Shown here: positions 2,839 to 32,650 of the stretch, piece by piece | Position numbering within the stretch: the stretch's first letter is position 1 | Layout of the letters: each line of letters opens with the position of its first letter | Origin: Dehalococcoidia bacterium | GTDB taxonomy: Bacteria > Chloroflexota > Dehalococcoidia > SM23-28-2 > DASRHH01 | Assembly: GCA_035650635.1 (NCBI GenBank) | Contig: DASRHH010000074.1 | Span: 1 to 35,735 of the forward strand | Length of the DNA: 35,735 nucleotides | Reading direction: 5' to 3' | Made by a program: the position numbers and the translations under genes | The notes under the pieces: model-generated | The model's database searches: none | Told to the model about the DNA's origin: nothing | Seen by the model: the letters and a program-made list of their open reading frames with translations, nothing else

Positions 2839-4891
2839 GACACTCACTGAGCGACTTCGGCTTGCTACGAGCAGCGACGAACGGCCGAATGTCATACGCC
2901 GTGAATTTGCCGGAGGAGGGCCGGTAGATCACAGAGGCCTGGCCGCGCGACACCAGGCCGTCCAGCAAAGGCTGCTCGTTCAGGTGATAGCGCCCATAGG
3001 CTTTCTCGACGACGACGTAGTCAACGGACTTAAACGCCAGGAAGCACTGGTACTGAGACTCCACCCAGTTGCGGCGGAAGGTGCTTTCGCTGAAGAATTC
3101 GTTGCCAAGGATGGCCCCGTGGCGCACGAAGCGGTACATGCCATCCTCACGATCGTCCGGCTCCAGTACCCGATAGACAGCGCCAGGCTGGAACTGCGGC
3201 GAGGCAAAAAACGAAGCGTAGATGTTGCTGCTATTCATGATCGCGCCCGGGTAGCTGCCCTCCGCGAAGCCAAAGGGAATAGTGGCAAGTGATACGCCGG
3301 CTGCCAGCACCACCCCGAAAGTCAGCAGCGCCGGTCGATAGTACTTGAGGATCAGCGGCGCGAAGAGCGCGAAGACAAGCGGCGCCAGGATGACCGACTC
3401 CCGCCGTAACAGCGAATCGAAGATGGAGATGACGATGGTGATCACCGTGTTCTCATGGACGGACGGTGTAAGCAGTACCATCCAGGCGAACGGCAACAGC
3501 GCTACGCCCACCGGCAAACTCAGCATCACCAGAGGCCGCAACCGCTGCCGGTCCAGAAAGACCAGGTTGAGGCCGTAGAGGATCAGCGCCAGCCCGCCGA
3601 CGATCCAGTGCGAGCTGATGGCCAGCCAGAGCAGCGCCGCGGCCAGGAGCCGCCGGTCGCGCTCAAAGGCCCAGATGAAAAGGAAGAAGAAGGCGAAGCT
3701 CCACATCGTCGCGAACTGGAACGCATAAATCGCATCGATGAAGAAAGGGTTCATCAGGAAGAGCAGCATGAACCATGGGCTCTTCATCACCGGCCGTGCC
3801 AGGCCGGCGGCCCATACCGTCCCCACTGTCGCAATCGCCATCAAAAGTACGACTCCCCAGTCGCCGACGACCGGGAAGACGGTTGCGCCTAGGAGGTAGG
3901 GCACCAGCGCGTAAGGAAAGGCAATCGCCCGTCCGCTATCGAGGGATGTTATTCGCAGGGGTATCCGGGCGTGGTCGAAGATCTGCTCGCTAATGAACCA
4001 GATGTGGGTGTAGTTGTGCATCGAGTCGTAGGCAAGGAAGATCGGATGAATCAGCAGATCGACCGCGATAAAGGCCACTCCGCCGATAGCCAGCGCCGGC
4101 AGCAGATACAAGAGCCAGCCGCCGATATCGCGCGGGGCCTGCCTCAAGCAGAACACCCGCCAGAAGGCGGCCGGCATCGCAAGCAGATCGATCACGCCGT
4201 CCTTGACCCGCGTGCGCGAACGCTGCACAGGCACGGGGACAAGGACGTCGTTGCTTACTCGATAACCCAGATGAGGCAGCACGACAGCCAGCTCAACGGT
4301 CTCACTGTAGCGGTAGCCGCGGTAGTACTTGATCGCCTCGGCCAGGGCCCCGGCGCGAAAGACGCGGAAGCCAGACTCCACATCCCGGTAACGCATTCCG
4401 GCCCACAGCGTGGCCCAGGCGGACATCACGAAATTTCCGAATCGCTTGAATAATGAGTAGCCGCTGAGATCGCGCCGGGCGATCACGCCGTCCAATCGGT
4501 TGGTCAGCAAGTTATCGATGAGGCGACCGATATCTGTGGGGTCGTGCTGGCCATCGGCATCGACCGTCAGGATGAGATCGTCCGGGCTAAGCCGGCCGGC
4601 CGCTATGTCCTTCTGCAAGCGCTGGAACGCCATATAGTAAGCGGCCGACATGCCACGGTTTTTGGCAAAGCGGATGAGGCGGGTTTCCGGCCGCGAATCG
4701 ACCCACTCCGCTAACAGGTCGCCCGTGCCATCAGTGGAGCCGTCGTCGACAACGAAAATCCGGTCGACGGTCTGCTCCAGCTTCTCCAGGACACCAATGA
4801 TGGTGCCGGCTTCGTTGTAAGCCGGCATGACGGCGACGATGAGCGGGCTCTTTGTGGTGGGGGCGAGCGGCTCAGTGAGCGACTGGCTCAT
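2828..4891 (-). CDS. Family 2 glycosyltransferase (polyprenyl-phosphate sugar transferase-like, ArnC/DPM1-like) fused to a large polytopic membrane domain plus a C-terminal soluble domain
   Basis: N-terminus: PLIVAVMPAYNEAGTIIGVLEKL...IFVVDDGSTDGT...TVDADGQHD, the GT2 signature. This is followed by about 10-12 predicted TM segments and a soluble tail of about 130 aa. The start at MSQSLTEP (4891) forms an ATGA overlap with the epimerase stop. Confidence 0.8.
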   Translation of the reverse strand: MSQSLTEPLAPTTKSPLIVAVMPAYNEAGTIIGVLEKLEQTVDRIFVVDDGSTDGTGDLLAEWVDSRPETRLIRFAKNRGMSAAYYMAFQRLQKDIAAGRLSPDDLILTVDADGQHDPTDIGRLIDNLLTNRLDGVIARRDLSGYSLFKRFGNFVMSAWATLWAGMRYRDVESGFRVFRAGALAEAIKYYRGYRYSETVELAVVLPHLGYRVSNDVLVPVPVQRSRTRVKDGVIDLLAMPAAFWRVFCLRQAPRDIGGWLLYLLPALAIGGVAFIAVDLLIHPIFLAYDSMHNYTHIWFISEQIFDHARIPLRITSLDSGRAIAFPYALVPYLLGATVFPVVGDWGVVLLMAIATVGTVWAAGLARPVMKSPWFMLLFLMNPFFIDAIYAFQFATMWSFAFFFLFIWAFERDRRLLAAALLWLAISSHWIVGGLALILYGLNLVFLDRQRLRPLVMLSLPVGVALLPFAWMVLLTPSVHENTVITIVISIFDSLLRRESVILAPLVFALFAPLILKYYRPALLTFGVVLAAGVSLATIPFGFAEGSYPGAIMNSSNIYASFFASPQFQPGAVYRVLEPDDREDGMYRFVRHGAILGNEFFSESTFRRNWVESQYQCFLAFKSVDYVVVEKAYGRYHLNEQPLLDGLVSRGQASVIYRPSSGKFTAYDIRPFVAARSKPKSLSECHVY

Positions 4892-5832
4892 GCTCGTGGG
4901 GAAGCCAGGCGAGATTCTTTCTCCAGGAGCCAATGCACCGTCTTCGCCACGCCGGTTTCGAAGGGGACTCGTGGTTCCCAGCCCAACTCCAAATGAGCTT
5001 TCTCGCTACTGACATCGCTGCCGGCGTAGTCCCCGCCGCGGCTCGGCATAAACTTGATTATGCTCTCGGATGGCACAAGGCGCAGGATGGCCTGGGCAAT
5101 CCGCAGGATAGTCACCTTCTCAGAGCCGTCCAGGTTGTAGGTCTGGTTCGCCGCGCAGTCCTGCAGCGCCAGGACATGGCCTCGCGCTAGGTCCTCCACG
5201 TAGACGAACTTGCGGTGCTGGCTGCCGTCCCCGGCCACGGTCAGAGGCTCGCCCGCCAGGGCCTTGCCGACGAAGAGCGGGATCACCAGCGAAGGGCGCA
5301 TCCGCGGGCCGTAAGGGATACCGTAGCGCAGAATGGTAAACGGCAACTGGTGCTGGTTCCAGTAGTCGTGGCAGAGCAGCTCGCCGGCGATCTTGGACGA
5401 CGTATAAAGATGGCGGTTGGCGGCGATATCGATCTGGACCGTCTCGTCCACGACCTCGGGCGCGGCGGACCCGAGTGAGGAGTACACCCAGACGGTGCTG
5501 GCGAACAGCACGCGCCGCAGCGAGTTCTCTCGAGCGGCCTCCAGGAGGCAAAGGGTGCCGCGCACGTTGAGATCGATCGCCCGCACGGGATCACGGTTAA
5601 CGTCATTGACGTCGGCGACCGCCGCCAGGTGGAAGACGACATCGAGGCCGGAGGTGGCATCGATCAGCGCCTCCTGGTCCAGCAGGTCCGCCTGATGATG
5701 CTCGACGTCCGGCCTCTGCGGCAGCGCCAGGTCAATGACACGCACGTTGTGGCCGGCCTCGATCAGCGCATCAACGACATGCGAGCCGATGAAGCCAGAG
5801 CCGCCGGTGACGCCGATCCTCATCCTAGGCAC
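4888..5832 (-). CDS. NAD-dependent epimerase/dehydratase (extended SDR; nucleotide-sugar 4-epimerase/decarboxylase-like)
   Basis: IGVTGGSGFIGSHVVDAL Rossmann motif and YTSSK (YxxxK). 314 aa. Overlaps the aminotransferase stop by 8 nt. Confidence 0.85.
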   Translation of the reverse strand: MPRMRIGVTGGSGFIGSHVVDALIEAGHNVRVIDLALPQRPDVEHHQADLLDQEALIDATSGLDVVFHLAAVADVNDVNRDPVRAIDLNVRGTLCLLEAARENSLRRVLFASTVWVYSSLGSAAPEVVDETVQIDIAANRHLYTSSKIAGELLCHDYWNQHQLPFTILRYGIPYGPRMRPSLVIPLFVGKALAGEPLTVAGDGSQHRKFVYVEDLARGHVLALQDCAANQTYNLDGSEKVTILRIAQAILRLVPSESIIKFMPSRGGDYAGSDVSSEKAHLELGWEPRVPFETGVAKTVHWLLEKESRLASPRA

Positions 5833-6961
5833 GCTCCTTTTGCAGCTGCAGCCGCTCCAGGCTAGCAGCCAGCGACTCCACCACGTACTCCGCGTCGGCT
5901 TCCCTCATTACCGCGGAGATCGGCAGGCAGATGTGGCGAGCGCAGAGGTCGTCAGCCTGGGGTAGATGGCATTCGCCGTCCGCAAAGACGGGCTGCCGGT
6001 GACAGGGCGTCTCATAGACCTCGCCGCTCAGGCCGATGTCGAACTCCTCGCGCAGCATTCGCTTCAGCGGTGCCCGCTCGACTCCGTCCAGGAGCGCGAT
6101 GTACTTGTAGTAGTTCGATTCCGATTGCGTGGCCGGCTGCACCGGGACTATCGCGGGGGCCAGCCCGGCCAGCTGCCGGTCGTAGACCTGGGCGATGGCC
6201 TGGCGGTGCTCCGCAAACTCCCGCAGGCGCCGGAATTGTGCCAGCCCGATGACAGCGTGCGGCTCGCTGAGCCGCCAGTTGTACCCCATGCGGACATGGA
6301 AATTGGTGCTGAACCCTTCCTTCCCCTGGTCGCGATAGATGCGGGCTTCTCTGTCGATGGACTCATCGTTGGTGACAATGACCCCGCCCTCGCCGCTGGT
6401 TATCACCTTGGTCGGGTAGAAGGAGAAGGCGGCCGCCACGCCGAAGCTGCCGGCGGGCCGGCCGGCAAGCCGGCTACCGTGGGCATGAGCTGCGTCCTCG
6501 ATCAGCGGCACGCCTGCACGCTGGCAAATCTGTTGGATCTCCGGCAGACGGGGTGAGATGAGACCGCCGATGTGGACGACCATGACTGCGGCTGTCCGCG
6601 GGCTAATCAGGCCGGCCAGGCCACCCGGGTCCAGCGCGAAGGACTGGGGCTCGCAATCGGCGAAGACCGGGGTGCCGCCGGCGTGCACCACGGCGCCCGC
6701 GCTGGCGTAGAAGGTGTTCGTCGGCACGATCACTTCCCGGCCGGCGACACCGATCGCCCGGAGGATGATCTCCAGGGCGCTGGTGCCGCTGTTGACGGCG
6801 ATGGCGTGGCGCGCTTCGCAAGCCTCCGCAAAGGCGGCCTCCAGGGCCGCGCCATGCCGTCCCAGAGTCAACTGCCCGCTGCGCAAACACTCGTCGATCT
6901 GCGCCATGATCCAGGCTCGGTCTTCGTCCGGAAAGTGGATGGCCGCCGGGGGCACTTTCAT
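5825..6961 (-). CDS. DegT/DnrJ/EryC1/StrS-family PLP-dependent sugar aminotransferase (ArnB-like)
   Basis: 378 aa. Family-typical blocks: AVNSGTSALE, IEDAAHAHGS, SFYPTKVITSGEGG (PLP lysine region). Confidence 0.9.
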   Translation of the reverse strand: MKVPPAAIHFPDEDRAWIMAQIDECLRSGQLTLGRHGAALEAAFAEACEARHAIAVNSGTSALEIILRAIGVAGREVIVPTNTFYASAGAVVHAGGTPVFADCEPQSFALDPGGLAGLISPRTAAVMVVHIGGLISPRLPEIQQICQRAGVPLIEDAAHAHGSRLAGRPAGSFGVAAAFSFYPTKVITSGEGGVIVTNDESIDREARIYRDQGKEGFSTNFHVRMGYNWRLSEPHAVIGLAQFRRLREFAEHRQAIAQVYDRQLAGLAPAIVPVQPATQSESNYYKYIALLDGVERAPLKRMLREEFDIGLSGEVYETPCHRQPVFADGECHLPQADDLCARHICLPISAVMREADAEYVVESLAASLERLQLQKERA

Positions 6962-11261: not shown

Positions 11262-12623
11262 CTAAGATCCATTCGTAAAGATCGGATAGCCCGCAGCTCG
11301 CCAGGCTTCAATGCCGCCATCAAGGTTGAGCAAAGGACCCAGGCCTGCGCGTTCCAGCAACGAGGCAGCCGTCGAGGCACGTTCGCCATGGCCACAATAG
11401 GCGACCAGCGGCCGACCCTTGGGTAGGGTTGCCGCCACGTCTTGCAGGCGGCCCAGCGGTAGCTGGAGTGCGCCTTCAATATGGCCACTAGCGAATTCGT
11501 CCGACTCGCGTACGTCGAGGATCTCAGCCCCGTCAACGATGGCGCGGCGGGCGGCCTGGGCATCAACCAGTCTCACCTCAGCCACAGGCCGCCCGGACGC
11601 CTGCCAGGCAGTGATGCCGCCCTGCAGCCAGCCAACGAAGCGCTCGTAGCCGACAAGCAGCGATTCCGCGACGACATCTTCCAGCCTGACGCCGTCCGTT
11701 ACGAAAAGCAGCGGCAAGTCCGGCGGCACCAGCCATCCCAGCCAGGTGGCATAGACGTCGCGCAGGGGGTTGCTGATGGCGTTGGGCACGTGAGCCAGCG
11801 AGTACTCCTCCTTCGATCGCACGTCGATGACGATGGCGCCGGCAGCGAGCGCCTCCGCAAATTCGTCCGCGCTGAGCGGACGCGGACTGGGGATCTCCCC
11901 GCGCAAGCGCGGTCCGGCCTGGTTGAAGGCGCGAAGGCGGAAGAAGTAGTCCGGCGCGGCCGGAAATGTCCTCGGAAGCCAGCGGACGAACTCCTCCTGC
12001 TCGGTCTGCCGCAGCAACGGGTTGGATGCGCGCTCGCGGCCCAACGTCGAGATGCGCTCACCGCCGGCACCAGTGGAGCAGAAGGAGCCGCCGCCGTGGG
12101 TCGGATAGAGGATGGTGTTATCTGGCAGCGCGGCAAAGACCTGGTGCACCGTGTGAAAGAGGGAGCGGGTCAGCGATTCGGTCAGGTCCGGCGAAATTAG
12201 GTCGGTGCGGGCTGCGCCGCCGACAATGAGTGCGCCGCCACTGAACAGCTGCGGAGGCTGCCGGGCGCTGCGCAGGACATACGCCAGGTGCTCTGGCGTA
12301 TGTCCTGGCGAGGCAAGGGCCTCGATATCGGCGGAAGCAAGGCGCAGGCGCTGGCCAGCTTCAATGGCTTCGTGCGGGAACTTCGCCTGCTCGCCGGCCG
12401 GCAACAGGATGCGGGCGCCGGTGGCGTGAGCCAGCTCGCGGGCGCCGGAGACGAAATCTGCGTGCAGATGGGTCTCCAGCAACGCGACGATCCGCAGTCC
12501 CCGGGCCTCGGCCAACTGCAGGTAGCGCTGGATGCTACGGTCCGGGTCCACGACCAGCGCTTGCCCCTCGCCGAGATCCACCAGGTAGGAGCTGTTGCCC
12601 AACCCTTCATGAACAAACGGCAT
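11262..12623 (-). CDS. MBL-fold persulfide dioxygenase-like domain fused to two rhodanese domains (CstB/Blh-like)
   Basis: True start is MPFVHEGLGNSSYLVDLG (ATG at 12623), 5 nt after the MFS stop. The track ORF 11262..13055 carries a spurious Arg-rich extension that overlaps the MFS gene. Motifs: ETHLHADF and SPGHTPEH (MBL metal ligands); a second rhodanese with active-site loop YCGHGERAS. Confidence 0.85.
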   Translation of the reverse strand: MPFVHEGLGNSSYLVDLGEGQALVVDPDRSIQRYLQLAEARGLRIVALLETHLHADFVSGARELAHATGARILLPAGEQAKFPHEAIEAGQRLRLASADIEALASPGHTPEHLAYVLRSARQPPQLFSGGALIVGGAARTDLISPDLTESLTRSLFHTVHQVFAALPDNTILYPTHGGGSFCSTGAGGERISTLGRERASNPLLRQTEQEEFVRWLPRTFPAAPDYFFRLRAFNQAGPRLRGEIPSPRPLSADEFAEALAAGAIVIDVRSKEEYSLAHVPNAISNPLRDVYATWLGWLVPPDLPLLFVTDGVRLEDVVAESLLVGYERFVGWLQGGITAWQASGRPVAEVRLVDAQAARRAIVDGAEILDVRESDEFASGHIEGALQLPLGRLQDVAATLPKGRPLVAYCGHGERASTAASLLERAGLGPLLNLDGGIEAWRAAGYPIFTNGS

Positions 12624-12628
12624 CACCT

Positions 12629-13891
12629 TCACGGCGATACCTCCAGGGGCCGGCCGAATGTGGCTCTGCTCATCGTCATCGCTGCTACGACTCCGGAGCA
12701 GACTGTCGCGACGGCCACCAACTGGATGGCCGGCCGGAAACCGAAGACATCGGCGACAGCCCCGGCAGCCAGAGCGCCGGCTGCCGCTCCCGAGTCGCGC
12801 CAGAACCGATAGACACCGATGAAACTCGCACGGGCCTCCGGGTGAACCTCGTCGCCGATTGCTGCCAGCAGAGTCGGGTAGACGAGAGCGGTGCCTGCAC
12901 CCAATAAGGATACTGCCACCAGCCAACCCTCGAACTGCGAGGTCGCTCCGACGATGGCAATGGCCAAGCCCTGCAGCAGCATGCCAACGACGACGAGCGG
13001 TCGGCGGCCCAACTGGTCGCTGGCCCAGCCAGTCAGTGGCTGTAATGCGCCCCACAGCAAGGGGTAAAGCGAGGCCAGCAGCGCTATGCGCTCCAGTGAA
13101 AGACCGTGACTGGCGAAGTAGAGGGGAAAGATACCCCAGGCCAGGCCGTCGTTGAGGTTGTTGACGAAACCGGCCTGGCTGACACCGAACAGTCGAGGTT
13201 GGCGCGCTGTCTCGGCGAAACTGGCGCCGAGTGAGACAGCTGCCACCGATACCGGGTGGCGAGTCGCTTCCAGTCGCACATGGGAGGCGGTGTCGCGCAC
13301 CGCAAGCAGGCTCAGCGCCAGCCCGAGGCTGGCGAAAGCGATGCCGAGATAAAACGGCTCAGGCCTAAGCCCGTAGCCTTCGGCGATGATGCCGGTGAGG
13401 TAAGCAGCAGCGGCCACAGAGAGGTAACCCGCAGCCTCATTCACCCCGAGCGCAAAGCCACGGCTCCGCGGACCGACCAGATCGACCTTCATGTTCACAG
13501 TCATCGACCATGTTAGTCCCTGGTTGATCCCCAGCAGGAGATTGGCGCCGATGACCCAACTCCAGGCTGGCGCCAGTATGATGATGATTGGGACCGGCAG
13601 GCCGAAGAGCCAGCCGGTGACGAGAAGGCGTTTGCGGCCGTATCGCTCCGAAAGGCGGCCGGCGAAAAGGTTAGCCAGCGCCTTGGCCAGCCCGAACGAC
13701 GCGATGAAAGAGACAGCGGCCGTCTTGGAGGCGATGCCGAACTCGTCCCTGGCGAGGACCGGCATGATAGAGCGCTCCAGCCCGACCATGCCGCCGACGA
13801 AGGCATTGACCAGCGCCAGCAAAGCAAACTGCTGCCAGTTCGCTCGCAGGCCCAGGACCACACGTCGATCAGACTGGCGAGGCGGCACCAC
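12629..13891 (-). CDS. MFS transporter (possible sulfur oxyanion exporter, by context only)
   Basis: 420 aa, 12-TM pattern, MFS motif-A-like GRLSERYGRKR. Confidence 0.85.
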   Translation of the reverse strand: MVPPRQSDRRVVLGLRANWQQFALLALVNAFVGGMVGLERSIMPVLARDEFGIASKTAAVSFIASFGLAKALANLFAGRLSERYGRKRLLVTGWLFGLPVPIIIILAPAWSWVIGANLLLGINQGLTWSMTVNMKVDLVGPRSRGFALGVNEAAGYLSVAAAAYLTGIIAEGYGLRPEPFYLGIAFASLGLALSLLAVRDTASHVRLEATRHPVSVAAVSLGASFAETARQPRLFGVSQAGFVNNLNDGLAWGIFPLYFASHGLSLERIALLASLYPLLWGALQPLTGWASDQLGRRPLVVVGMLLQGLAIAIVGATSQFEGWLVAVSLLGAGTALVYPTLLAAIGDEVHPEARASFIGVYRFWRDSGAAAGALAAGAVADVFGFRPAIQLVAVATVCSGVVAAMTMSRATFGRPLEVSP

Positions 13892-13919: not shown

Positions 13920-14279
13920 TCAGACGTTCAGAGTCGTGGCGCCGGACAGTGCGTACTCGACCACGTTGGCTGCGGTCACGATCTTCGCGCCTTCGATGAG
14001 GTCTGCCTCCGTAATGCCGCGCGGGTTGGTGCAGGCGGCGCAGGCCCAGATCTGGCCGCCGTTAGCCAGGAACGACTTGATGACGTCAGCGAGGGGCTGG
14101 AAACCTTCCTTGTGGATACCCTCCGCGTAGCCTTTCGTGGCAATGCGGACTCCCTCGATCGTCAAGAACACGACCGCCTCCTGGTCCGCGCTGGCCGCGA
14201 CATTGCCCACCACGAAGGGGAGTGTCGCGCGCTCGGGATCGTCCTGCCCGTTGTTGCAGTTGACCAGAACCTTTGCCAT
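13920..14279 (-). CDS. DsrE/DsrF-family sulfur relay protein
   Basis: 119 aa. Starts MAKVLVNCNNG and contains WACAACTNPRG, a DsrE-fold pattern with conserved Cys. Confidence 0.8.
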   Translation of the reverse strand: MAKVLVNCNNGQDDPERATLPFVVGNVAASADQEAVVFLTIEGVRIATKGYAEGIHKEGFQPLADVIKSFLANGGQIWACAACTNPRGITEADLIEGAKIVTAANVVEYALSGATTLNV

Positions 14280-14305: not shown

Positions 14306-14551
14306 CTACTTCTTGCGGATGTAGAAGCGGGTCTTATGCGCGTCTTCTTCCACGGTCGCGACCAGCGCGTTGCCGCTTAGTCGGCACCAGGCCGGCACCC
14401 CTTCACGTGCAGACAAGTCGTCGCTGAGGATCATCAGCACCTCGCCGCTCGCCAGGTCGCGCAACCCGGCCTTGATCAACGGTGGCAGGTTCGCGCAGGC
14501 CTCCCCGGGGGCATCCAGGAGATGGTGCGTATCAGGGATCTCTTGCTTCAT
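14306..14551 (-). CDS. tusA: TusA/SirA-family sulfur carrier protein
   Basis: 81 aa. LDAPGEACANLPPLIKAGL matches the TusA N-terminal Cys loop (variant of D-x-RG-x-x-CP-x-P). A strong SD (AGGAAGGAG) lies upstream. Confidence 0.8.
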   Translation of the reverse strand: MKQEIPDTHHLLDAPGEACANLPPLIKAGLRDLASGEVLMILSDDLSAREGVPAWCRLSGNALVATVEEDAHKTRFYIRKK

Positions 14552-14555
14552 GTCT

Positions 14556-15344
14556 CTACTCCTTCCTCTTGCGACCCGAAAAAGTCACGCCAAACGTCTC
14601 GAACTCCCTGGCGTCCGATTCGTGCTTCGATCCCGAGAAGACGTCAACTTCCCGGCCCCATTCAATTTCCTGAAAACCGACGCGGTCCAGGACCCAACGC
14701 CACTCTGCTTCCAGCAGAGCACCGGCAATTCAGCCAGACCAGAGATCGATGTCATCCTTTGCGGCCTGGGGAACCTCTTTGTGAACTACGATGTCTCCGA
14801 TTTGGATGCGGCCCTCCGGCTTTAGCACCCGGTAGACTTCCTTCATCACGCCGACCTTGTCGGGGCAGAGATTGATGACTCCGTTACTGATGACGACGTC
14901 AACTGAACCGTCCGGCGCGGGGAGCGCTTCCGCGAAGCCTTCTCGCGCATCGACATTTGTCAGGCCAAGCAAAGTGGCGCTTGCACCGGTCTTGGCCAGC
15001 ATGGCAGCCGTCATGTCGACGGCTATCACGCGGCCTGCCGGGCCTACCTGCTGCGCGGCCAGCAGAGTGTCGAAGCCGGCGCCGCAACCGATGTCGAGGA
15101 CGGTCGAACCCTCCGCCAACCGGCCAAGCGAGAGCGGATTGCCGGTGCCGGCGAAAGACTCGACTGTTGATGTTGGCAGCCAATCGACGTCGGCCTCTGC
15201 GTAGCCCAGCATCACAGCCAATGGCCGACCGGTATGAAAGTGGAAGCCCTTATCCGGTTCTTGAGCCACGTCGGTGTATTTGGCCTGAATCTGGCCGCGC
15301 AAGTCGTGGCGATTCACGGCTGCTGGTCTTACTGCACTAGTCAT
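14556..15344 (-). CDS. ArsM/UbiE-type SAM-dependent methyltransferase with in-frame TGA (14730..14732) at a conserved Cys position; candidate selenoprotein, 262 aa with U205
   Basis: Track ORF 14730..15344 ends ...DDIDLWSG-TGA. The same frame continues IAGALLEAEWRWVLDRVGFQEIEWGREVDVFSGSKHESDAREFETFGVTFSGRKRKE-TAG (stop 14556..14558). SAM motif VLDIGCGAGFD. A G-[Cys]-(I/V)-AGA block is conserved in the ArsM family. The total length is typical for the family. Confidence 0.6.
14701..14721 (-). promoter_or_regulatory. SECIS-like stem-loop immediately 3' of the in-frame UGA
   Basis: The mRNA reads UGA AUUGCCGGUG CUCUGC UGGAA GCAGAG UGG. This gives a 6-bp perfect stem (plus two possible G.U pairs), a 5-nt apical loop containing GG, and 16 nt between UGA and the loop. 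Confidence 0.45.
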
Positions 15345-15453
15345 CTGAGTACTCTCTTACAGTTCATCTATTACTCATGGAACCTCCTCCAGAAATCCTT
15401 GGGAAGATAATCGATGATAAACTTCAACTTGTCAATAGATAAATTGAAGAGTT

Positions 15454-15488: not shown

Positions 15489-16151
15489 ATGGACGATCAC
15501 CGCGGCTTCAAGGATCGGATATATGCCGAGTTCGCTCGCGTCGGCCAGGCTCTGGCGAACGAGAAGCGATTGGAGCTTATCGACCTGCTCGCCCAAGCGC
15601 CCAGGCACGTCGACGCTCTCGCTCAGGAGAGTGGAATGTCGGTGGCCAACGTCTCACAGCATCTGCAGGTGTTGCGAGATGTCCACCTCGTGACGCCTCA
15701 GAAGGAAGGCACACGAGTCGTCTATCGCCTTGCTGGCCTGGACGTGATCGGTCTATGGCTCTCGCTAAGATCGGTTGGGGAAGAACGTCTCGCGGAAGTC
15801 CGGCGCATCGTCGAAGACTCGGGGCCAGCCAGCAGCCTCAATGAGGAGCTGCCTCGTGCGGACCTCGATGGATTGCTTGCGTCCGGGCGGGCCATACTCC
15901 TGGATGTGCGGCCGCGCCTCGAGTTCGAATCCGGCCATCTGCCAGGCGCCGTTTCCATCCCGCTAAATGAACTGATGGATCGCTTGAGCGAGTTGCCTCG
16001 GGATAAGCTCGTCATCACCTATTGCCGGGGAGCCTACTGTCTGTTTGCAGACGAGGCCTTGGTCCTGCTGCGCCAACATGGCTACAACGCTCGCCGATTG
16101 GAGGGCGGCTGGCCTGAGTGGCTCAGCGAAGGTCGCGACGTCTCAACTTGA
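15489..16151 (+). CDS. ArsR/SmtB-family HTH regulator fused to a C-terminal rhodanese domain
   Basis: HTH region LELIDLLAQAPRHVDALAQESGMSVANVSQHLQVLRDVHLV. Rhodanese region LLDVRPRLEFESGHLPGAVSIP...ITYCRGAYC. The only cysteines in the protein are in the rhodanese loop. Confidence 0.85.
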   Translation: MDDHRGFKDRIYAEFARVGQALANEKRLELIDLLAQAPRHVDALAQESGMSVANVSQHLQVLRDVHLVTPQKEGTRVVYRLAGLDVIGLWLSLRSVGEERLAEVRRIVEDSGPASSLNEELPRADLDGLLASGRAILLDVRPRLEFESGHLPGAVSIPLNELMDRLSELPRDKLVITYCRGAYCLFADEALVLLRQHGYNARRLEGGWPEWLSEGRDVST

Positions 16152-27706: not shown

Positions 27707-30700
27707 CTACCCGAAGTTGTGCGCATGTGGAGCGACCGGCAGACTGCCGTTCAGCGCCCGGAAGTCCTCCGCTACGATGTTGATCGTGCCCTCTCGACGC
27801 TCCAACATCCCTCGCACGATGACGAACGGCTCGGTGCGGACCAACTGACGTTGCCGCTCATAGAGGCTGGCGCGCACCATCACGTTGGCCAGGCCAAACT
27901 CGTCCTCCATCACTAGAAAGACCATCCCCTTCGCCGTCATTGGCCGCTGACGACAGACTACCAGGCCCGCCAGTTCCAGGAATTTGCCGTCCTCCAGCGA
28001 ATGCAGCGCTGAGGTAGGTACGATGCCCTCGTGCAGGCGAGGTCGCAGGAAGGCCATAGGGTGCTGCAGGGACAACCCCAGGATGGAGTAATCGGCGGCC
28101 ATGCGGTCCCATTCGCTCATCGACGAGAGCGAGACCATGTCCTGCTCCGTGAGTAAGGGCAGCGCGAGCTGGCGTTGCCCGGCGTTGCGGCCTTCCGGTC
28201 GATAGACCAGCCCTAGCTGCCAGAGCAACTCTCGCCTCTCCAGTCCGAAGCCGTCGAAGGCTCCACAGCCGATCAGGTTCTCGATGGCTCCTCGCTTGAG
28301 GCGGGTGCGCTCCAGGAAGTCGAACAGCGAGCGAAAGGGGCCGCCCTCGTCGCGCCGCGTTTCGACCTCTTTCGCTGTACTCGGGCTCAAGCCTTTCACG
28401 TAGCGCAGGCCGATGCGCACCGCGCCATGCTCCATGGTGCAACTGGCATTGCTGCGGTTGATGTCCGGTGGCAATACCTCCACGCCGTGGCGCCGGCCGT
28501 CGTTCAGGAGGACGTGCGGGCCGTAGAACCCCATGGGCTGGGCGTTGAAGAGCGCGCAGAGGAACTCCGTGGGATAATACTGACGCAGCCAGGCGGTCTG
28601 GTAAGCGAGCAGCCCGAAGGCAGCGGCGTGGGCCTTAGGGAAGCCGAACTCCGCGAACCCGGATATCTTCTGGAAGGCACTCTCGGCGGCTTCCGGCGAG
28701 ACCCCGTTCTGCAGGCAGCCGTCCATGAACTCATCCTTCAGCCTGGAGATGGCTTCCTGGGAGCGCTTGCGACTCATGGCCCGGCGCAGGTTATCCGCCT
28801 GGCCGGTACTGAAGCCGGCCAGGGCCATCGCTACCTGCAGCACCTGGTCCTGGAAGAGGATGACGCCAAGTGTATCCTCCAGCACCGGCTCCAGGCTGGG
28901 GTGGTCGTAAGTAACTTCCTCCTTTCCCATGCGACGCCGGATGTAGGGGTTGACGGCACCACCGACGATGGGCCCCGGCCGGATGATCGCCACCTCCACC
29001 GTCAAGTCCTCCAGTGAGCGCGGCTTTACTCGCGGCAACGTCTGCATCTGAGCCCGCGACTCGATCTGGAAGACGCCCATCGTATCGGCATCGCAGATGG
29101 AGTCGTAGACCTGCTGGTCCTGGAAATCGATGCGGGAGAGGTCGACATGCCGGCCTTGGTGCCGCTCGATGAGGTCGAGGCAGTCGTCGACGGCGGAGAG
29201 CATGCCCAACGAGAGGAAGTCGATCTTGATCATGCGAGCGTCATCGACCGAGTCTTTGTCCCACTGGATGAGGTCGCGGCCCTCCATAGCGCTCTGCTCC
29301 AGCGGCACCAGCTCCACCAGCGGCTGTGTGCCGGAGATGACCATGCCGCCGACGTGCTGGCTGATGTGCCGGGGGAAGCCCGCAATCTGCTCCACCAGCT
29401 CCATCAGGTGCCGCCAGAGCGGAGCGTCCATCTTGTCCCGGTAGTGGGCCAGGCGCCTCATCTCCTCCCGCACGTGACGGGCGGAGGAATAGCCGTCGCT
29501 GACCTTGGCCAGGCGATCGAGTTCCGCCAGGGGCAGGCTCAGCGCCTTCCCCACCTCTCGCACAGCGCTGCGCAGCCGGTAGGTGGGGAAGGTAGCGACG
29601 AGCCCCACATTCTCCCGGCCAAAGTGCTCGTAGATGCGCAGGATCAGCTTCTCCCGGACGTCGCGCGGGAAATCGAGGTCGATGTCCGGCACCGATGCCA
29701 TCTCCTCATTGAGGAAGCGGCCCAGGAAGAGGTTGTTGGCCACGGGATCAATGTGCGATAGACCGATCAGGTAGCAGATGACGGACCCAACGGAAGAGCC
29801 GCGCCCCCGGCCCGGCGGCGCCAGGCATTCACGTCCACGCACTTCCCCTGCTACCTGATAGGCCAGGTTGAGGATCTCCCAGTGGATGAGGAAAAAGCCG
29901 GCCAATCCGTGATGAGCCACCAACCGCAGCTCTTCCTCCAGCCTCTCCTGCGCTTGCAGTGGCCGCTGGTAGCGGCGCTCTAGCTCCCGCCGGCAGAGCT
30001 TGCGCAGGTAAGAGTCCGCCGTCTCGCCGGGCGGCACCGGGTAGTCCGGGAAGCGATAGTCCAGGTCCTTCGTGAGGTCGAACCGGCAGCGCTCGGCGAT
30101 GCGCAGGCTGTTGGCGATGGCCTGCGGGTGATCTCGGAAGAGCTCCGCCATCTCAGCGGGCGGCCGCAGGAAGTACTCCGAGTTCTCGCGGCGTAGGTAG
30201 TGGCTGGCGTCCAGCGTGCTGCGGTTCTTGATGACGACCAGCACGTCCTGCAGGCGGTGCCGCTCTCGCGTATGGTAATGGACATTGCCCGTCGCTACGG
30301 TGCCAACACCCAAGCGCCGCGCCAGTTCCGCCAGTGCTTGATTGCGGCGGACGTCTCCATAGACCAGGTTGTTCTGCAGCTCCAGGAAGAAGCTGCCGGC
30401 GCCAAACCAGTCGCGGTAGCGGCGGGCGGCCGCCTCCGCTTCCGGGTAGCGCTCCTGTGCCAGCAGCGCTGGCACCTCCCCGCGCCGGCAGCCGGACAGT
30501 GCGATGAGCCCTTCCGTTTGGCGGGCCAGCACCTCCAGATCGATACAGGGGCTGCCGCGCTCGTGGTCCAGGTGGGCGTGAGTGAGCAGGCGGCAGAGGT
30601 TAGCGTAGCCGCGCTGAGTCTCGCAGAGCAGCGTCAGGTGGTGGCCGTTGGCCAGCGTGACCTCGGCGCCGGTGATCGGCTTGAGGTCCCAGGCACGGGC

Positions 30701-30865
30701 GGCCTGCGCGAACTCCATCGCCCCGTGCAGGCCGTCGTGGTCGGTCAGCGCCAGTGACTCGTATCCCTGAGCCTTCGCTCGCAACACCATCTCCTCGACG
30801 TGCGAGGCGCCCTCCAGGAAAGAAAAGCTGGAATGGGCGTGCAGCTCGGCGTAGGGAGCAGGCAT
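27707..30865 (-). CDS. dnaE2: Error-prone DNA polymerase III alpha-subunit paralog
   Basis: 1052 aa. N-terminal PHP domain YAELHAHSSFSFLEGAS...LALTDHDGLHG. The length and the adjacent imuB-like gene fit DnaE2 rather than replicative DnaE. Confidence 0.9.
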   Translation of the reverse strand: MPAPYAELHAHSSFSFLEGASHVEEMVLRAKAQGYESLALTDHDGLHGAMEFAQAARAWDLKPITGAEVTLANGHHLTLLCETQRGYANLCRLLTHAHLDHERGSPCIDLEVLARQTEGLIALSGCRRGEVPALLAQERYPEAEAAARRYRDWFGAGSFFLELQNNLVYGDVRRNQALAELARRLGVGTVATGNVHYHTRERHRLQDVLVVIKNRSTLDASHYLRRENSEYFLRPPAEMAELFRDHPQAIANSLRIAERCRFDLTKDLDYRFPDYPVPPGETADSYLRKLCRRELERRYQRPLQAQERLEEELRLVAHHGLAGFFLIHWEILNLAYQVAGEVRGRECLAPPGRGRGSSVGSVICYLIGLSHIDPVANNLFLGRFLNEEMASVPDIDLDFPRDVREKLILRIYEHFGRENVGLVATFPTYRLRSAVREVGKALSLPLAELDRLAKVSDGYSSARHVREEMRRLAHYRDKMDAPLWRHLMELVEQIAGFPRHISQHVGGMVISGTQPLVELVPLEQSAMEGRDLIQWDKDSVDDARMIKIDFLSLGMLSAVDDCLDLIERHQGRHVDLSRIDFQDQQVYDSICDADTMGVFQIESRAQMQTLPRVKPRSLEDLTVEVAIIRPGPIVGGAVNPYIRRRMGKEEVTYDHPSLEPVLEDTLGVILFQDQVLQVAMALAGFSTGQADNLRRAMSRKRSQEAISRLKDEFMDGCLQNGVSPEAAESAFQKISGFAEFGFPKAHAAAFGLLAYQTAWLRQYYPTEFLCALFNAQPMGFYGPHVLLNDGRRHGVEVLPPDINRSNASCTMEHGAVRIGLRYVKGLSPSTAKEVETRRDEGGPFRSLFDFLERTRLKRGAIENLIGCGAFDGFGLERRELLWQLGLVYRPEGRNAGQRQLALPLLTEQDMVSLSSMSEWDRMAADYSILGLSLQHPMAFLRPRLHEGIVPTSALHSLEDGKFLELAGLVVCRQRPMTAKGMVFLVMEDEFGLANVMVRASLYERQRQLVRTEPFVIVRGMLERREGTINIVAEDFRALNGSLPVAPHAHNFG

Positions 30866-31480: not shown

Positions 31481-32650
31481 TTAAGGCTCGAACTCGACCA
31501 GGGCCGCTCTGCGCTCGGGAATCCGCGACCACGGCTCCACCTCCACAATCTTCCCCAGGGGCACGTAGCCCTGCTTGGCGTGCAGTTGTCGCACAGTCTC
31601 GTCTATCTGTCGCCACAGCTTGCCCTTGCTCTCGAACATGCCGGCCTGCCTGCCAGACTCGGCGCTCAGACCTACCAGTTCTACCTCCAGCTCCTCCACC
31701 GGCCGCTGCGGCGGATGCCGGACGATGGCGCTCTTTACTGCGAACCAGGCATGGGCGGGGTCGGAGAGCGCCTCCCGGAAGGAGACCGGCAGCTCCCAGG
31801 AGCCACCGCCGTCCAGGAGGCCGCGCGCCACTACCTTGCGCACCCAGCGGCCACGCCTGTCCGGGCTCCCGTAAGCGCTGTAGAGCAGGCGCTCCAGGCC
31901 GGCGAGTATGGGGTCGATGGACACTGCCGCGGCCGGCAGTTGCAGCCGGCGCACGATGCTCTCCTCCTGCAGCCTTGGCAGCAGCGGCTCGCTATCGATG
32001 CCCTGCGCCAGCTCCCAGCAGCGCTTGCCCTCGGTCCCGAACTGCTGCTGGTAGGCGCCCAGTGGCAGCGTCGCTATCTCTCCCAGGGTGCGCAATCCCA
32101 GCAGCTCCAGCCGCCAGCGAACCGGTTCATCGATGGGGAGGAGATCTACAGGCAACGGCGCCAGGAAGCCGGCGTCTTGCCCCGCCTGCACCAGCTTCGC
32201 CAGGCCGGGGCGAGAGGTCTGCGCCGCGACGCGGGCGGTGAACTTGCCTTTCGCGATGCCTGCCGTCGCCATCAGCCCGAAGCGCTTGTGCAGTCCGGAG
32301 ATCAGGCGATCCGCCAGCTCCTGCGGCTCAGCCGCCAGGCCCTTCAGCGAGAGATAGGCCAGCCCGAGGCCCGCCGGTTCCAGCTCCGGGCTGAACCCTT
32401 CCAGGAAGTTCATCACCTCTTCGAAGCGGCACTGGTAATAGGACAGGTCCGGTGGCAGCACCTCCGCGCGATGACAGAGGCCAATCGCTTCCGACATGCG
32501 CATGCCGCGCCTGACGCCGGAGGCCTCAGCGCCGAGAGAGCAATCGAAGACTGTTGCTTCGCCGATTAAAATAAGAGATGTGGCTGAACTCTGCCGGCGT
32601 TGGCGCTCGACTTCGACAGAGAAACGGGGGATAGCGATGCAAGTAAGCAT
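31481..32650 (-). CDS. imuB: Y-family polymerase homolog lacking the catalytic acidic residues (ImuB-like)
   Basis: The N-terminus CIAIPRFSVEVE replaces the canonical D-x-D-x-F-(F/Y)-ASVE motif of DinB-type enzymes. 389 aa. Lies upstream of dnaE2. Confidence 0.75.
   Translation of the reverse strand: MLTCIAIPRFSVEVERQRRQSSATSLILIGEATVFDCSLGAEASGVRRGMRMSEAIGLCHRAEVLPPDLSYYQCRFEEVMNFLEGFSPELEPAGLGLAYLSLKGLAAEPQELADRLISGLHKRFGLMATAGIAKGKFTARVAAQTSRPGLAKLVQAGQDAGFLAPLPVDLLPIDEPVRWRLELLGLRTLGEIATLPLGAYQQQFGTEGKRCWELAQGIDSEPLLPRLQEESIVRRLQLPAAAVSIDPILAGLERLLYSAYGSPDRRGRWVRKVVARGLLDGGGSWELPVSFREALSDPAHAWFAVKSAIVRHPPQRPVEELEVELVGLSAESGRQAGMFESKGKLWRQIDETVRQLHAKQGYVPLGKIVEVEPWSRIPERRAALVEFEP

Follow-up and report, generated by a model that had tools for sequence, protein, structure and literature searches.

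An in-frame UGA very probably read as selenocysteine in an ArsM-like methyltransferase of Dehalococcoidia

In a 35,735-nucleotide stretch of contig DASRHH010000074.1 from a Dehalococcoidia bacterium (Chloroflexota; assembly GCA_035650635.1; hereafter, the window, meaning the whole stretch analysed), the first gene of a minus-strand operon encodes a methyltransferase related to the arsenite methyltransferases (ArsM) and carries an in-frame UGA codon. Very probably, this UGA is read as selenocysteine (Sec), and the product is a 262-residue member of an ArsM-like methyltransferase family. The core of the original prediction made for this stretch, namely, Sec recoding in an ArsM-like methyltransferase with a hairpin downstream of the UGA, is supported by the pairing of Cys and TGA among homologs, by the fit of the hairpin to the bacterial Sec insertion sequence (bSECIS) model and by sequence constraint specific to the TGA-containing genes. 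The gene model should be extended to 262 residues.

The methyltransferase open reading frame (ORF) runs on the minus strand from ATG 15344 to ...DDIDLWSG and the in-frame TGA at 14732..14730, past which 57 further codons (IAGALLEAEW...GVTFSGRKRKE) are open up to the TAG at 14558..14556; these coordinates, all given in the original prediction, were reproduced from the sequence. Codons 1-204 (14733..15344), which constitute the entire gene in databases, encode the Rossmann domain that binds S-adenosylmethionine (SAM), as delineated from the ORF and from Pfam and PDB matches. The 57-codon C-terminal extension (14559..14729; IAGALLEAEW...DVFSGSKHESDAREFETFGVTFSGRKRKE) would be translated only if the UGA (14730..14732), the single one in the 262-residue ORF, is recoded, and the protein would then end in ...GRKRKE at the TAG (14556..14558). 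Both the reading frame and the orthologs, most of whose extensions end after 55-60 codons, point to this TAG as the true stop. Without read-through, the gap between the methyltransferase and the next gene, tusA (ATG at 14551), would be 178 nt, compared to 4 nt with read-through; elsewhere in the operon, adjacent genes are 26 nt or 28 nt apart or overlap by 4 nt. The long untranslated gap emphasized in the original prediction thus indeed exceeds the other junctions, although its length had been given as 175 nt. Because a Shine-Dalgarno-like AGGAAGGAG for tusA, read directly from the sequence (14559..14567, minus strand), sits within the last codons of the extended ORF, directly before the TAG, the arrangement suggests that translation of tusA is coupled to that of the extended methyltransferase. 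By our own estimate, a 57-codon extension stays open by chance with a probability of ~17% in DNA of 61% GC, which makes the open frame weak evidence alone, and therefore, the case for recoding rests on the comparison with other sequences.

Protein searches and alignment yielded 121 homologs, in 102 of which column 205 is Cys; these are full-length proteins of ~260 residues with 60-73% identity to the window protein. The 16 closest relatives (76-87% identity) end at this column, at 203-206 residues, every one with ...LWSG. Two further database entries, P0109 and P0072, show W or G at the Sec site (WSGWIAGAL and WSGGIAGAL), probably because gene callers translated the TGA under genetic codes 4 or 25; entries of this type introduce erroneous sequences into protein databases. 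At the DNA level, 41 species-representative genomes (mostly from Chloroflexota/Dehalococcoidia, with one bin labelled Acidobacteria and one Gemmatimonadota) share a TGA at this codon and a conserved ~55-residue extension after it, and a metagenome scan added ~75 TGA forms and 4 TGC forms, bringing the TGA at this codon to more than 120 independent assemblies overall. The expectation that the homologs would have Cys or Sec in this column, and would continue through the extension, is borne out: the extension is conserved in all TGA loci and colinear with the Cys-form homologs, including invariant residues such as HESDA..F.T.G. Across 115 TGA loci, the entropy at codon positions 1/2/3 is 0.48/0.37/1.16 before the TGA and 0.67/0.49/1.35 in the extension, and flat, at 1.9/1.9/1.9, past the terminal stop. 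Judging by this periodicity, the extension is under purifying selection at the codon level, that is, coding.

The distribution of the two states was examined in a crude neighbor-joining tree without bootstrap (107 Sec, 108 Cys and 15 distant Sec sequences, rooted on the latter), in which the Sec and Cys clades are interleaved, suggesting repeated switches between Sec and Cys, with replacement of Sec by Cys. The residue that precedes the site tracks the state: before U, it is mostly G (sometimes D), and before C, it is S or N. One Anaerolineaceae metagenome-assembled genome (MAG) encodes two TGA-containing methyltransferase paralogs on separate contigs (CAYTBM010000034.1 and CAYTBM010000114.1; loci L035 and L073). 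Besides the methyltransferase itself, a scan of the window for other coding ORFs bridged by TGA gave antisense-frame artefacts only.

Ten nucleotides past the UGA (12 by another count), a hairpin (14699..14726, minus strand) is predicted, with an 8-bp stem, GCUCUGCU-GGA-AGCAGAGU (upper stem 14720-14713/14709-14702, apical loop GGA 14712-14710), lengthened by a lower GCC/GGC stem (14726-14724/14701-14699); if the U-A pair is left open, the same element is a 7-bp stem with the loop UGGAA. The folding energy is -13.8 kcal/mol (z = -2.68; 0 of 200 shuffled sequences fold equally well), and the spacing between the UGA and the apical loop is 16 nt. The bSECIS model specifies an apical loop of 3-9 nt whose first or second nucleotide is G, usually N1-G-[G/U]-N-N2, a stem of 4-16 bp, a UGA-loop distance of 16-37 nt and a minimum free energy (MFE) of at most -7.5 kcal/mol (PMC13188914). 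The hairpin in the window satisfies all four constraints (loop U-G-G-A-A, 7-8 bp, 16 nt, -13.8 kcal/mol), so that the structure with a GG loop at 16 nt reported in the original prediction is present and fits the model. Conservation of the hairpin in TGA orthologs, which had been proposed as a test, was observed as well: a consensus hairpin was found in 42 sequences, and the stem is near-invariant across 116 TGA forms. Such invariance renders covariation uninformative, and therefore, we turned to synonymous-codon statistics. The Ala at codon +4 is GCT in 115 of the 116 TGA forms and the Ala at codon +8 is GCA in 114, although these account for only 10% and 9%, respectively, of the Ala codons in the same genes, and the third positions next to the fixed Ala codons vary freely (1.1-1.8 bits). 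The eight Cys-form genes for which DNA was available use GCC, GCG and others at these codons, residue +8 is not Ala, and the segment folds with -8.5 kcal/mol in these Cys forms versus -12.6 kcal/mol in the TGA forms (Mann-Whitney p = 7e-5). These codon and folding statistics show that the hairpin is selected at the RNA level and in the TGA forms only, which is what a SECIS predicts, and we accordingly interpret it as one. Because the hairpin is fixed by rare synonymous codons, it can be broken by silent mutations, so that its function as a SECIS lends itself to a clean experimental test.

A second, distant Sec subfamily, with ~40% identity, has TGA at the same codon, within the motif W-[S/Y]-[Q/N]-U-IGGAI, together with SFCGVGNP and ISNGV. 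It was identified in Desulfobulbaceae, Nitrospirota, Bacillus benzoevorans DSM 5391 and Desulfopila aestuarii DSM 18488 (loci L041, L043, L045, L047, L050, L051, L053-L055, L057, L058, L060-L062, L064, L069-L071). Here, the hairpin is different, GAUC[C/U]C...G[G/A]GAUC, at the same distance; the loop pattern is shared, and compensatory exchanges between U-A and C-G are seen in the stem (9 vs 6 sequences). One member, L047, scores 438 bits against the cutoff of 460 of the curated selenoprotein model NF047649, which ties the family in the window to the curated Sec-methyltransferase families.

If the hairpin works in the way established for Sec insertion in bacteria, SelB-GTP loaded with Sec-tRNA(Sec) would bind it 3' of the UGA and deliver Sec while the ribosome sits on this codon, and translation would continue to the TAG at 14558..14556, 4 nt before the tusA start.

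The methyltransferase matches the Pfam families Methyltransf_31/25/11 and is thus a class I SAM methyltransferase. The best NCBIfam match is the arsenite methyltransferase model PRK11873/NF008823, at 222.1 bits, below the cutoff of 263 (the Cys ortholog P0010 reaches 230.3 bits). Three selenoprotein models match over the methyltransferase domain only: NF041537 (ArsM/AhpD; 216 bits vs cutoff 510), NF041536 (ArsM/DUF2284; 216 bits vs 575) and NF047649 (methyltransferase/UXPK-star; 204 bits vs 460). In a phmmer search of the PDB, ArsM structures, from Cyanidioschyzon and Chlamydomonas, came out best (E 1e-25 to 1e-27). An AlphaFold (AF2) model of P0010, with a predicted local distance difference test score (pLDDT) of 92.6, is closest to the ArsM structures 4fr0, 5evj and 8xt7 and to human AS3MT (Foldseek, E ~1e-18, template modelling score 0.63-0.70), and the region corresponding to the extension is included in the fold, with pLDDT 84-96.

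All arsenite methyltransferases (AsMTs) keep four Cys residues, C44, C72, C174 and C224 in the Cyanidioschyzon enzyme (CmArsM), of which C174 and C224 form the metalloid site (PMC6138428). In the alignment to CmArsM (5eg5/4fr0 numbering), U205 of the window protein is equivalent to Cys224, Gly155 corresponds to Cys174 and Thr67 to Cys72, and residues 1-86 contain no Cys, so that the Cys44 equivalent is absent as well. Of the four ArsM cysteines, only the C224 equivalent is present, within a UxxG motif (U-I-A-G). Thus, the TGA occupies the position of a substrate-binding Cys, as originally proposed, and the family is a divergent one with a single Cys/Sec site. The other two ArsM cysteines considered in the prediction have been lost rather than displaced; Cys160, in ISNGVINLCPDK, is Thr in 84 of the 121 homologs and hence is not a conserved displaced Cys. 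Given that the equivalents of Cys174, Cys72 and Cys44 are all missing, the sequence indicates that the gene in the window has the ArsM scaffold but is not a canonical arsenite methyltransferase. Two sequence blocks, G-F-H-F-H-T-G (residues 33-39, ~15228-15248, minus strand) and the C-terminal SGS.HESDA.EF.T.G, are invariant in the Chloroflexota family; neither the distant Sec subfamily nor canonical ArsM, in its aligned parts, has them. Together with Sec/Cys205, the pair of His residues in GFHFHTG might form a binding site.

The operon in the window starts with the methyltransferase, followed, all on the minus strand, by tusA (81 aa; 14306..14551; Pfam TusA), a dsrE-family gene (119 aa; 13920..14279; Pfam DsrE), an MFS transporter (420 aa; 12629..13891; Pfam MFS_1) and a gene for a fusion of a metallo-beta-lactamase (MBL) fold of the persulfide dioxygenase (PDO) type with rhodanese (456 aa; 11262..12632; Pfam Lactamase_B + Rhodanese), which overlaps the MFS stop by 4 nt. 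The mechanical ORF of this fusion (11262-13055, minus strand; 597 aa) starts 141 codons farther upstream, inside the MFS gene; the true start is probably GTG 12632, as in the gene calls for the contig. Divergently from the operon, there is a gene for a regulator that combines an ArsR-type helix-turn-helix (HTH) domain with rhodanese (220 aa; 15489..16151, plus strand; Pfam HTH_5/HTH_20 + Rhodanese). The 144-bp region shared with this gene contains a promoter-like TTGACA-17-GATTAT for the methyltransferase operon (15435..15407, minus strand) and, overlapping it, an inverted repeat, CTTCAACTTGTC / GATAAATTGAAG (15422-15433 / 15438-15449), a candidate operator, both found by consensus scan only. 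The locus in the window therefore has the gene set typical of persulfide stress, with the MBL-rhodanese fusion, sulfur carriers and a regulator of the ArsR family. Farther along the window, outside this locus, a DnaE2-type DNA polymerase III alpha paralog (27707-30865, minus strand; PHP, DNA_pol3_alpha, finger, HHH_6 and OB domains) adjoins an ImuB-like gene of the impB/mucB/samB family (31481-32650, minus strand); by its domain content, the pair looks like an error-prone polymerase cassette.

The neighbourhoods of the family were surveyed with tblastn, using the known neighbours as queries, and by a Pfam scan; clustering of raw ORFs was dropped because it was polluted by spurious ORFs in high-GC DNA. 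The ArsR-rhodanese regulator, present at 33 of 119 loci, is commoner than any other neighbour and adjoins the methyltransferase in all five Cys-form loci with gene calls, four of which had DNA; tblastn detected this regulator, the MFS transporter and the PDO-rhodanese fusion in 5/5 well-flanked Cys-form loci with DNA. TusA-DsrE, a 1-Cys peroxiredoxin, DUF4395 and an SQR-like flavoprotein are variably present at the Cys-form loci; the SQR-like gene occurs in L165, and dsrE orthologs adjoin the methyltransferase in L163 and L165. The MFS transporter also recurs beside the methyltransferase. Rhodanese is the commonest neighbouring domain among the 144 filtered neighbour ORFs in the Pfam scan. A DUF4395 membrane protein, at times fused to rhodanese, is located beside the methyltransferase or within the cluster in L166 (6797-7285), L167 (2073-2852) and L017 (4208-4705). 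Of the 36 Sec-form loci flanked by at least 4 kb on either side, 13 have sulfur-gene neighbours, and the others are heterogeneous. Hence, the TusA/DsrE/rhodanese cluster on which the predicted sulfur-relay operon was based recurs among the TGA forms without being universal.

The only recurring functional partner of the family is the machinery of persulfide and sulfide stress, and for this reason, we tentatively favour a role in sulfur methylation, with somewhat less than even confidence. The lone Sec/Cys205 would be the covalent acceptor of sulfane sulfur from TusA, DsrE or rhodanese proteins, SAM would methylate the terminal sulfur, and the product would be released as methanethiol or methyl persulfide, making the methyltransferase one branch of a persulfide-stress regulon under the divergent ArsR-rhodanese regulator. 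In the rhodanese and DsrE families, an active-site Cys carries persulfide sulfur. Selenoproteins of the rhodanese and DsrE types have been catalogued. Several results speak against this function: at 23 of the 36 Sec-form loci, none of the sulfur genes was found within ~6 kb; the tblastn neighbour scan found none of them at the loci of the second Sec subfamily either; and the literature search found no report, assay or ligand-bound structure that connects this clade, or ArsM-like enzymes in general, with sulfur methylation, be it methanethiol or persulfide methylation. The broader proposal, that the Chloroflexota clade with a single Sec/Cys represents a new kind of sulfane-sulfur (persulfide) S-methyltransferase and not an arsenic enzyme, appears doubtful at present. 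Should it hold, it would add a methylation branch to the bacterial persulfide-stress regulons and mean that soils, sediments and groundwater harbour a source of volatile methylated sulfur that has gone unrecognised, and genes of this clade may then be miscounted as arsM in surveys.

Alternatively, another chalcogen or metalloid (selenide, selenopersulfide, tellurite or antimonite) could be methylated, with the sulfur-relay proteins serving as selenium carriers. A single soft nucleophile in an ArsM-type pocket would suit such substrates, and the TusA, DsrE and rhodanese neighbours could conceivably carry Se besides S; however, nothing specific points in this direction, the PDO-rhodanese fusion and the SQR-like gene of L165 point to sulfur, and we consider this alternative unlikely. 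Still harder to sustain, if not by much, is the idea that the enzyme truly methylates arsenite (or methylarsenite/dimethylarsenite), with Sec in place of one of the arsenic ligands, even though the catalogued 'arsenite methyltransferase' selenoprotein family has been assigned arsenite methylation. The best curated matches, to PRK11873 and the ArsM-type Sec models, the nearest structural relatives, ArsM and AS3MT, and the location of Sec at the Cys224 position, which alone holds dimethylarsenite in the ArsM cycle, are all compatible with arsenic chemistry. Nevertheless, three of the four Cys conserved in AsMTs are absent, including Cys174 of the metalloid-binding pair, the PRK11873 score stays below the cutoff, ars genes are absent both from the window and from the 25 commonest neighbour families, and the recurrent partners are persulfide-handling genes.

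At the level of the codon, reading as Sec has to be weighed against termination. Under the latter possibility, the TGA is a real stop, the product is a truncated, 204-residue methyltransferase, and the similarity downstream is either a remnant in decay or a small gene in its own right. Products of 203-206 residues are indeed what gene callers and public databases annotate, and some termination at the UGA probably competes with Sec insertion, as generally known; but the codon-level selection in 115 sequences, the colinearity of the extension with the Cys forms, with its invariant residues, and its confident place in the fold of P0010 all contradict a remnant, and in the window, the extension begins directly at the TGA, with no start codon or ribosome-binding site before it, so that this alternative is highly improbable. 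Even less credible is the reading of TGA as Trp, Gly or Cys, through a reassigned code or near-cognate read-through, or an assembly error for TGC/TGT: apart from the W and G of P0109 and P0072, which probably stem from alternative code tables, the observations are at odds with it, given that the homologs have Cys rather than Trp or Gly, that the TGA recurs in more than 120 independent assemblies, that a TGA-specific hairpin would be needless for a reassigned codon, and that seven other Pfam-supported genes on the contig end with TGA as an ordinary stop, for which reason an alternative genetic code was rejected.

Some observations weigh against Sec insertion. Neither at gathering nor at permissive thresholds did Rfam match the hairpin to a SECIS or another relevant family, and the near-invariant stem of the hairpin makes almost no covariation available. 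No selA, selB, selD or tRNA-Sec was found in the 35.7-kb window or in the 41-kb contig portion. The window contains no tRNA gene of any kind, ARAGORN detected no tRNA-Sec in the window, in all 167 loci or in L038, and in the 1.31 Mb of loci scanned, SelA and SelD motifs were not detected and the SelB motif was found in L038 only. L038 is a Dehalococcoidia MAG contig of 1.2 Mb (CBDFLN010000001.1), on which a 632-residue selB (3933-5831, minus strand; TIGR00475, 351 bits against a cutoff of 242) and the TGA ortholog of the methyltransferase (5983-6612, plus strand) are divergent and 151 bp apart. Chloroflexi are known Sec users, and BSepDB lists 49 and 46 selenoproteins for Dehalococcoidia MAGs, which rank there with the bacteria richest in selenoproteins. 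Going by these relatives, Sec decoding is very likely in the organism of the window.

Among known systems, the closest is the arsenite S-adenosylmethyltransferase family (PRK11873), which was listed as a selenoprotein family in the Global Ocean Sampling (GOS) analysis in 2008 and, with the motif UxxG, is included among the experimentally verified prokaryotic selenoproteins in recent reviews, which cite Fomenko et al. 2007 (PMC9312934, PMC13188914). Given that UxxG ArsM-like selenoproteins entered the catalogues in 2007-2008, the recoding event is already known, as are its position and mechanism. Three further families of UxxG Sec-methyltransferases, NF047649, NF041537 and NF041536, were reportedly added by Haft and Tolstoy in 2025. 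The original prediction, which took the combination for an undescribed system, therefore overstated the novelty. What may be new, at most, is a large, mainly Chloroflexota subfamily with a single Sec/Cys and a link to persulfide-stress genes, represented in public sets by truncated, 204-206-residue 'SAM-dependent methyltransferases'. Gene calls truncate more than 120 public members of this subfamily to 203-206 residues, and no curated selenoprotein model captures them, so that the selenoproteome counts for Chloroflexota are too low. Moreover, because, of the four ArsM cysteines, the family retains a single position, which is strictly Cys or Sec, in the context of persulfide genes and not ars genes, sequence-based arsM surveys may misassign it.

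The window protein shares with the PRK11873 selenoproteins the fold, Sec at UxxG, the existence of Cys homologs and a SECIS inside the ORF; it differs in scoring below the model cutoff (222 vs 263), in lacking the other ArsM cysteines and in its Chloroflexota-centred distribution. With the three NCBIfam selenoprotein families, it has in common a homologous methyltransferase domain (204-216 bits) and the same UxxG Sec site, and the related Sec subfamily also has ISNGV in place of ISNCV. However, the identity is only ~40%, the scores are far below the cutoffs of 460-575, the window protein has no second Sec and no AhpD, DUF2284 or UXPK tail, and the hairpin sequence differs. Canonical ArsM and AS3MT (4fr0, 5evj, 6cx6, 8xt7) resemble it in the Rossmann SAM domain, the overall fold and the reactive residue at the Cys224 position, but have Cys44, Cys72 and Cys174, are longer (~320-390 vs 262 residues) and differ in context, with no ars operon in the window. 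The hairpin itself is akin to the E. coli fdhF type and the bSECISearch consensus in being located immediately 3' of the UGA within the ORF and in having a small G-G/U loop at 16 nt, a 7-8 bp stem and an MFE below -7.5 kcal/mol, whereas its sequence, a putative SelB target, is unrelated to that of the E. coli element.

Persulfide- and sulfide-stress operons include cst of Staphylococcus aureus, BigR-Blh and the SQR-PDO clusters. The locus in the window resembles these in its ArsR-family regulator, PDO-type MBL-rhodanese fusion, TusA and DsrE, and exporter, and differs in that the regulator has a rhodanese domain of its own; to our knowledge, none of these systems includes a methyltransferase. 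Sulfur-methylating enzymes, namely, MddA, MddH, MddM1/M2 and TMT1A/B, belong to other families (MddA is a membrane protein, and others are of the UbiE/UbiG type) that have no homology-based link to ArsM, and we found no active-site Cys or Sec described for them in the literature on these enzymes. What they share with the function proposed here is the SAM-dependent methylation of reduced sulfur as a means of detoxification.

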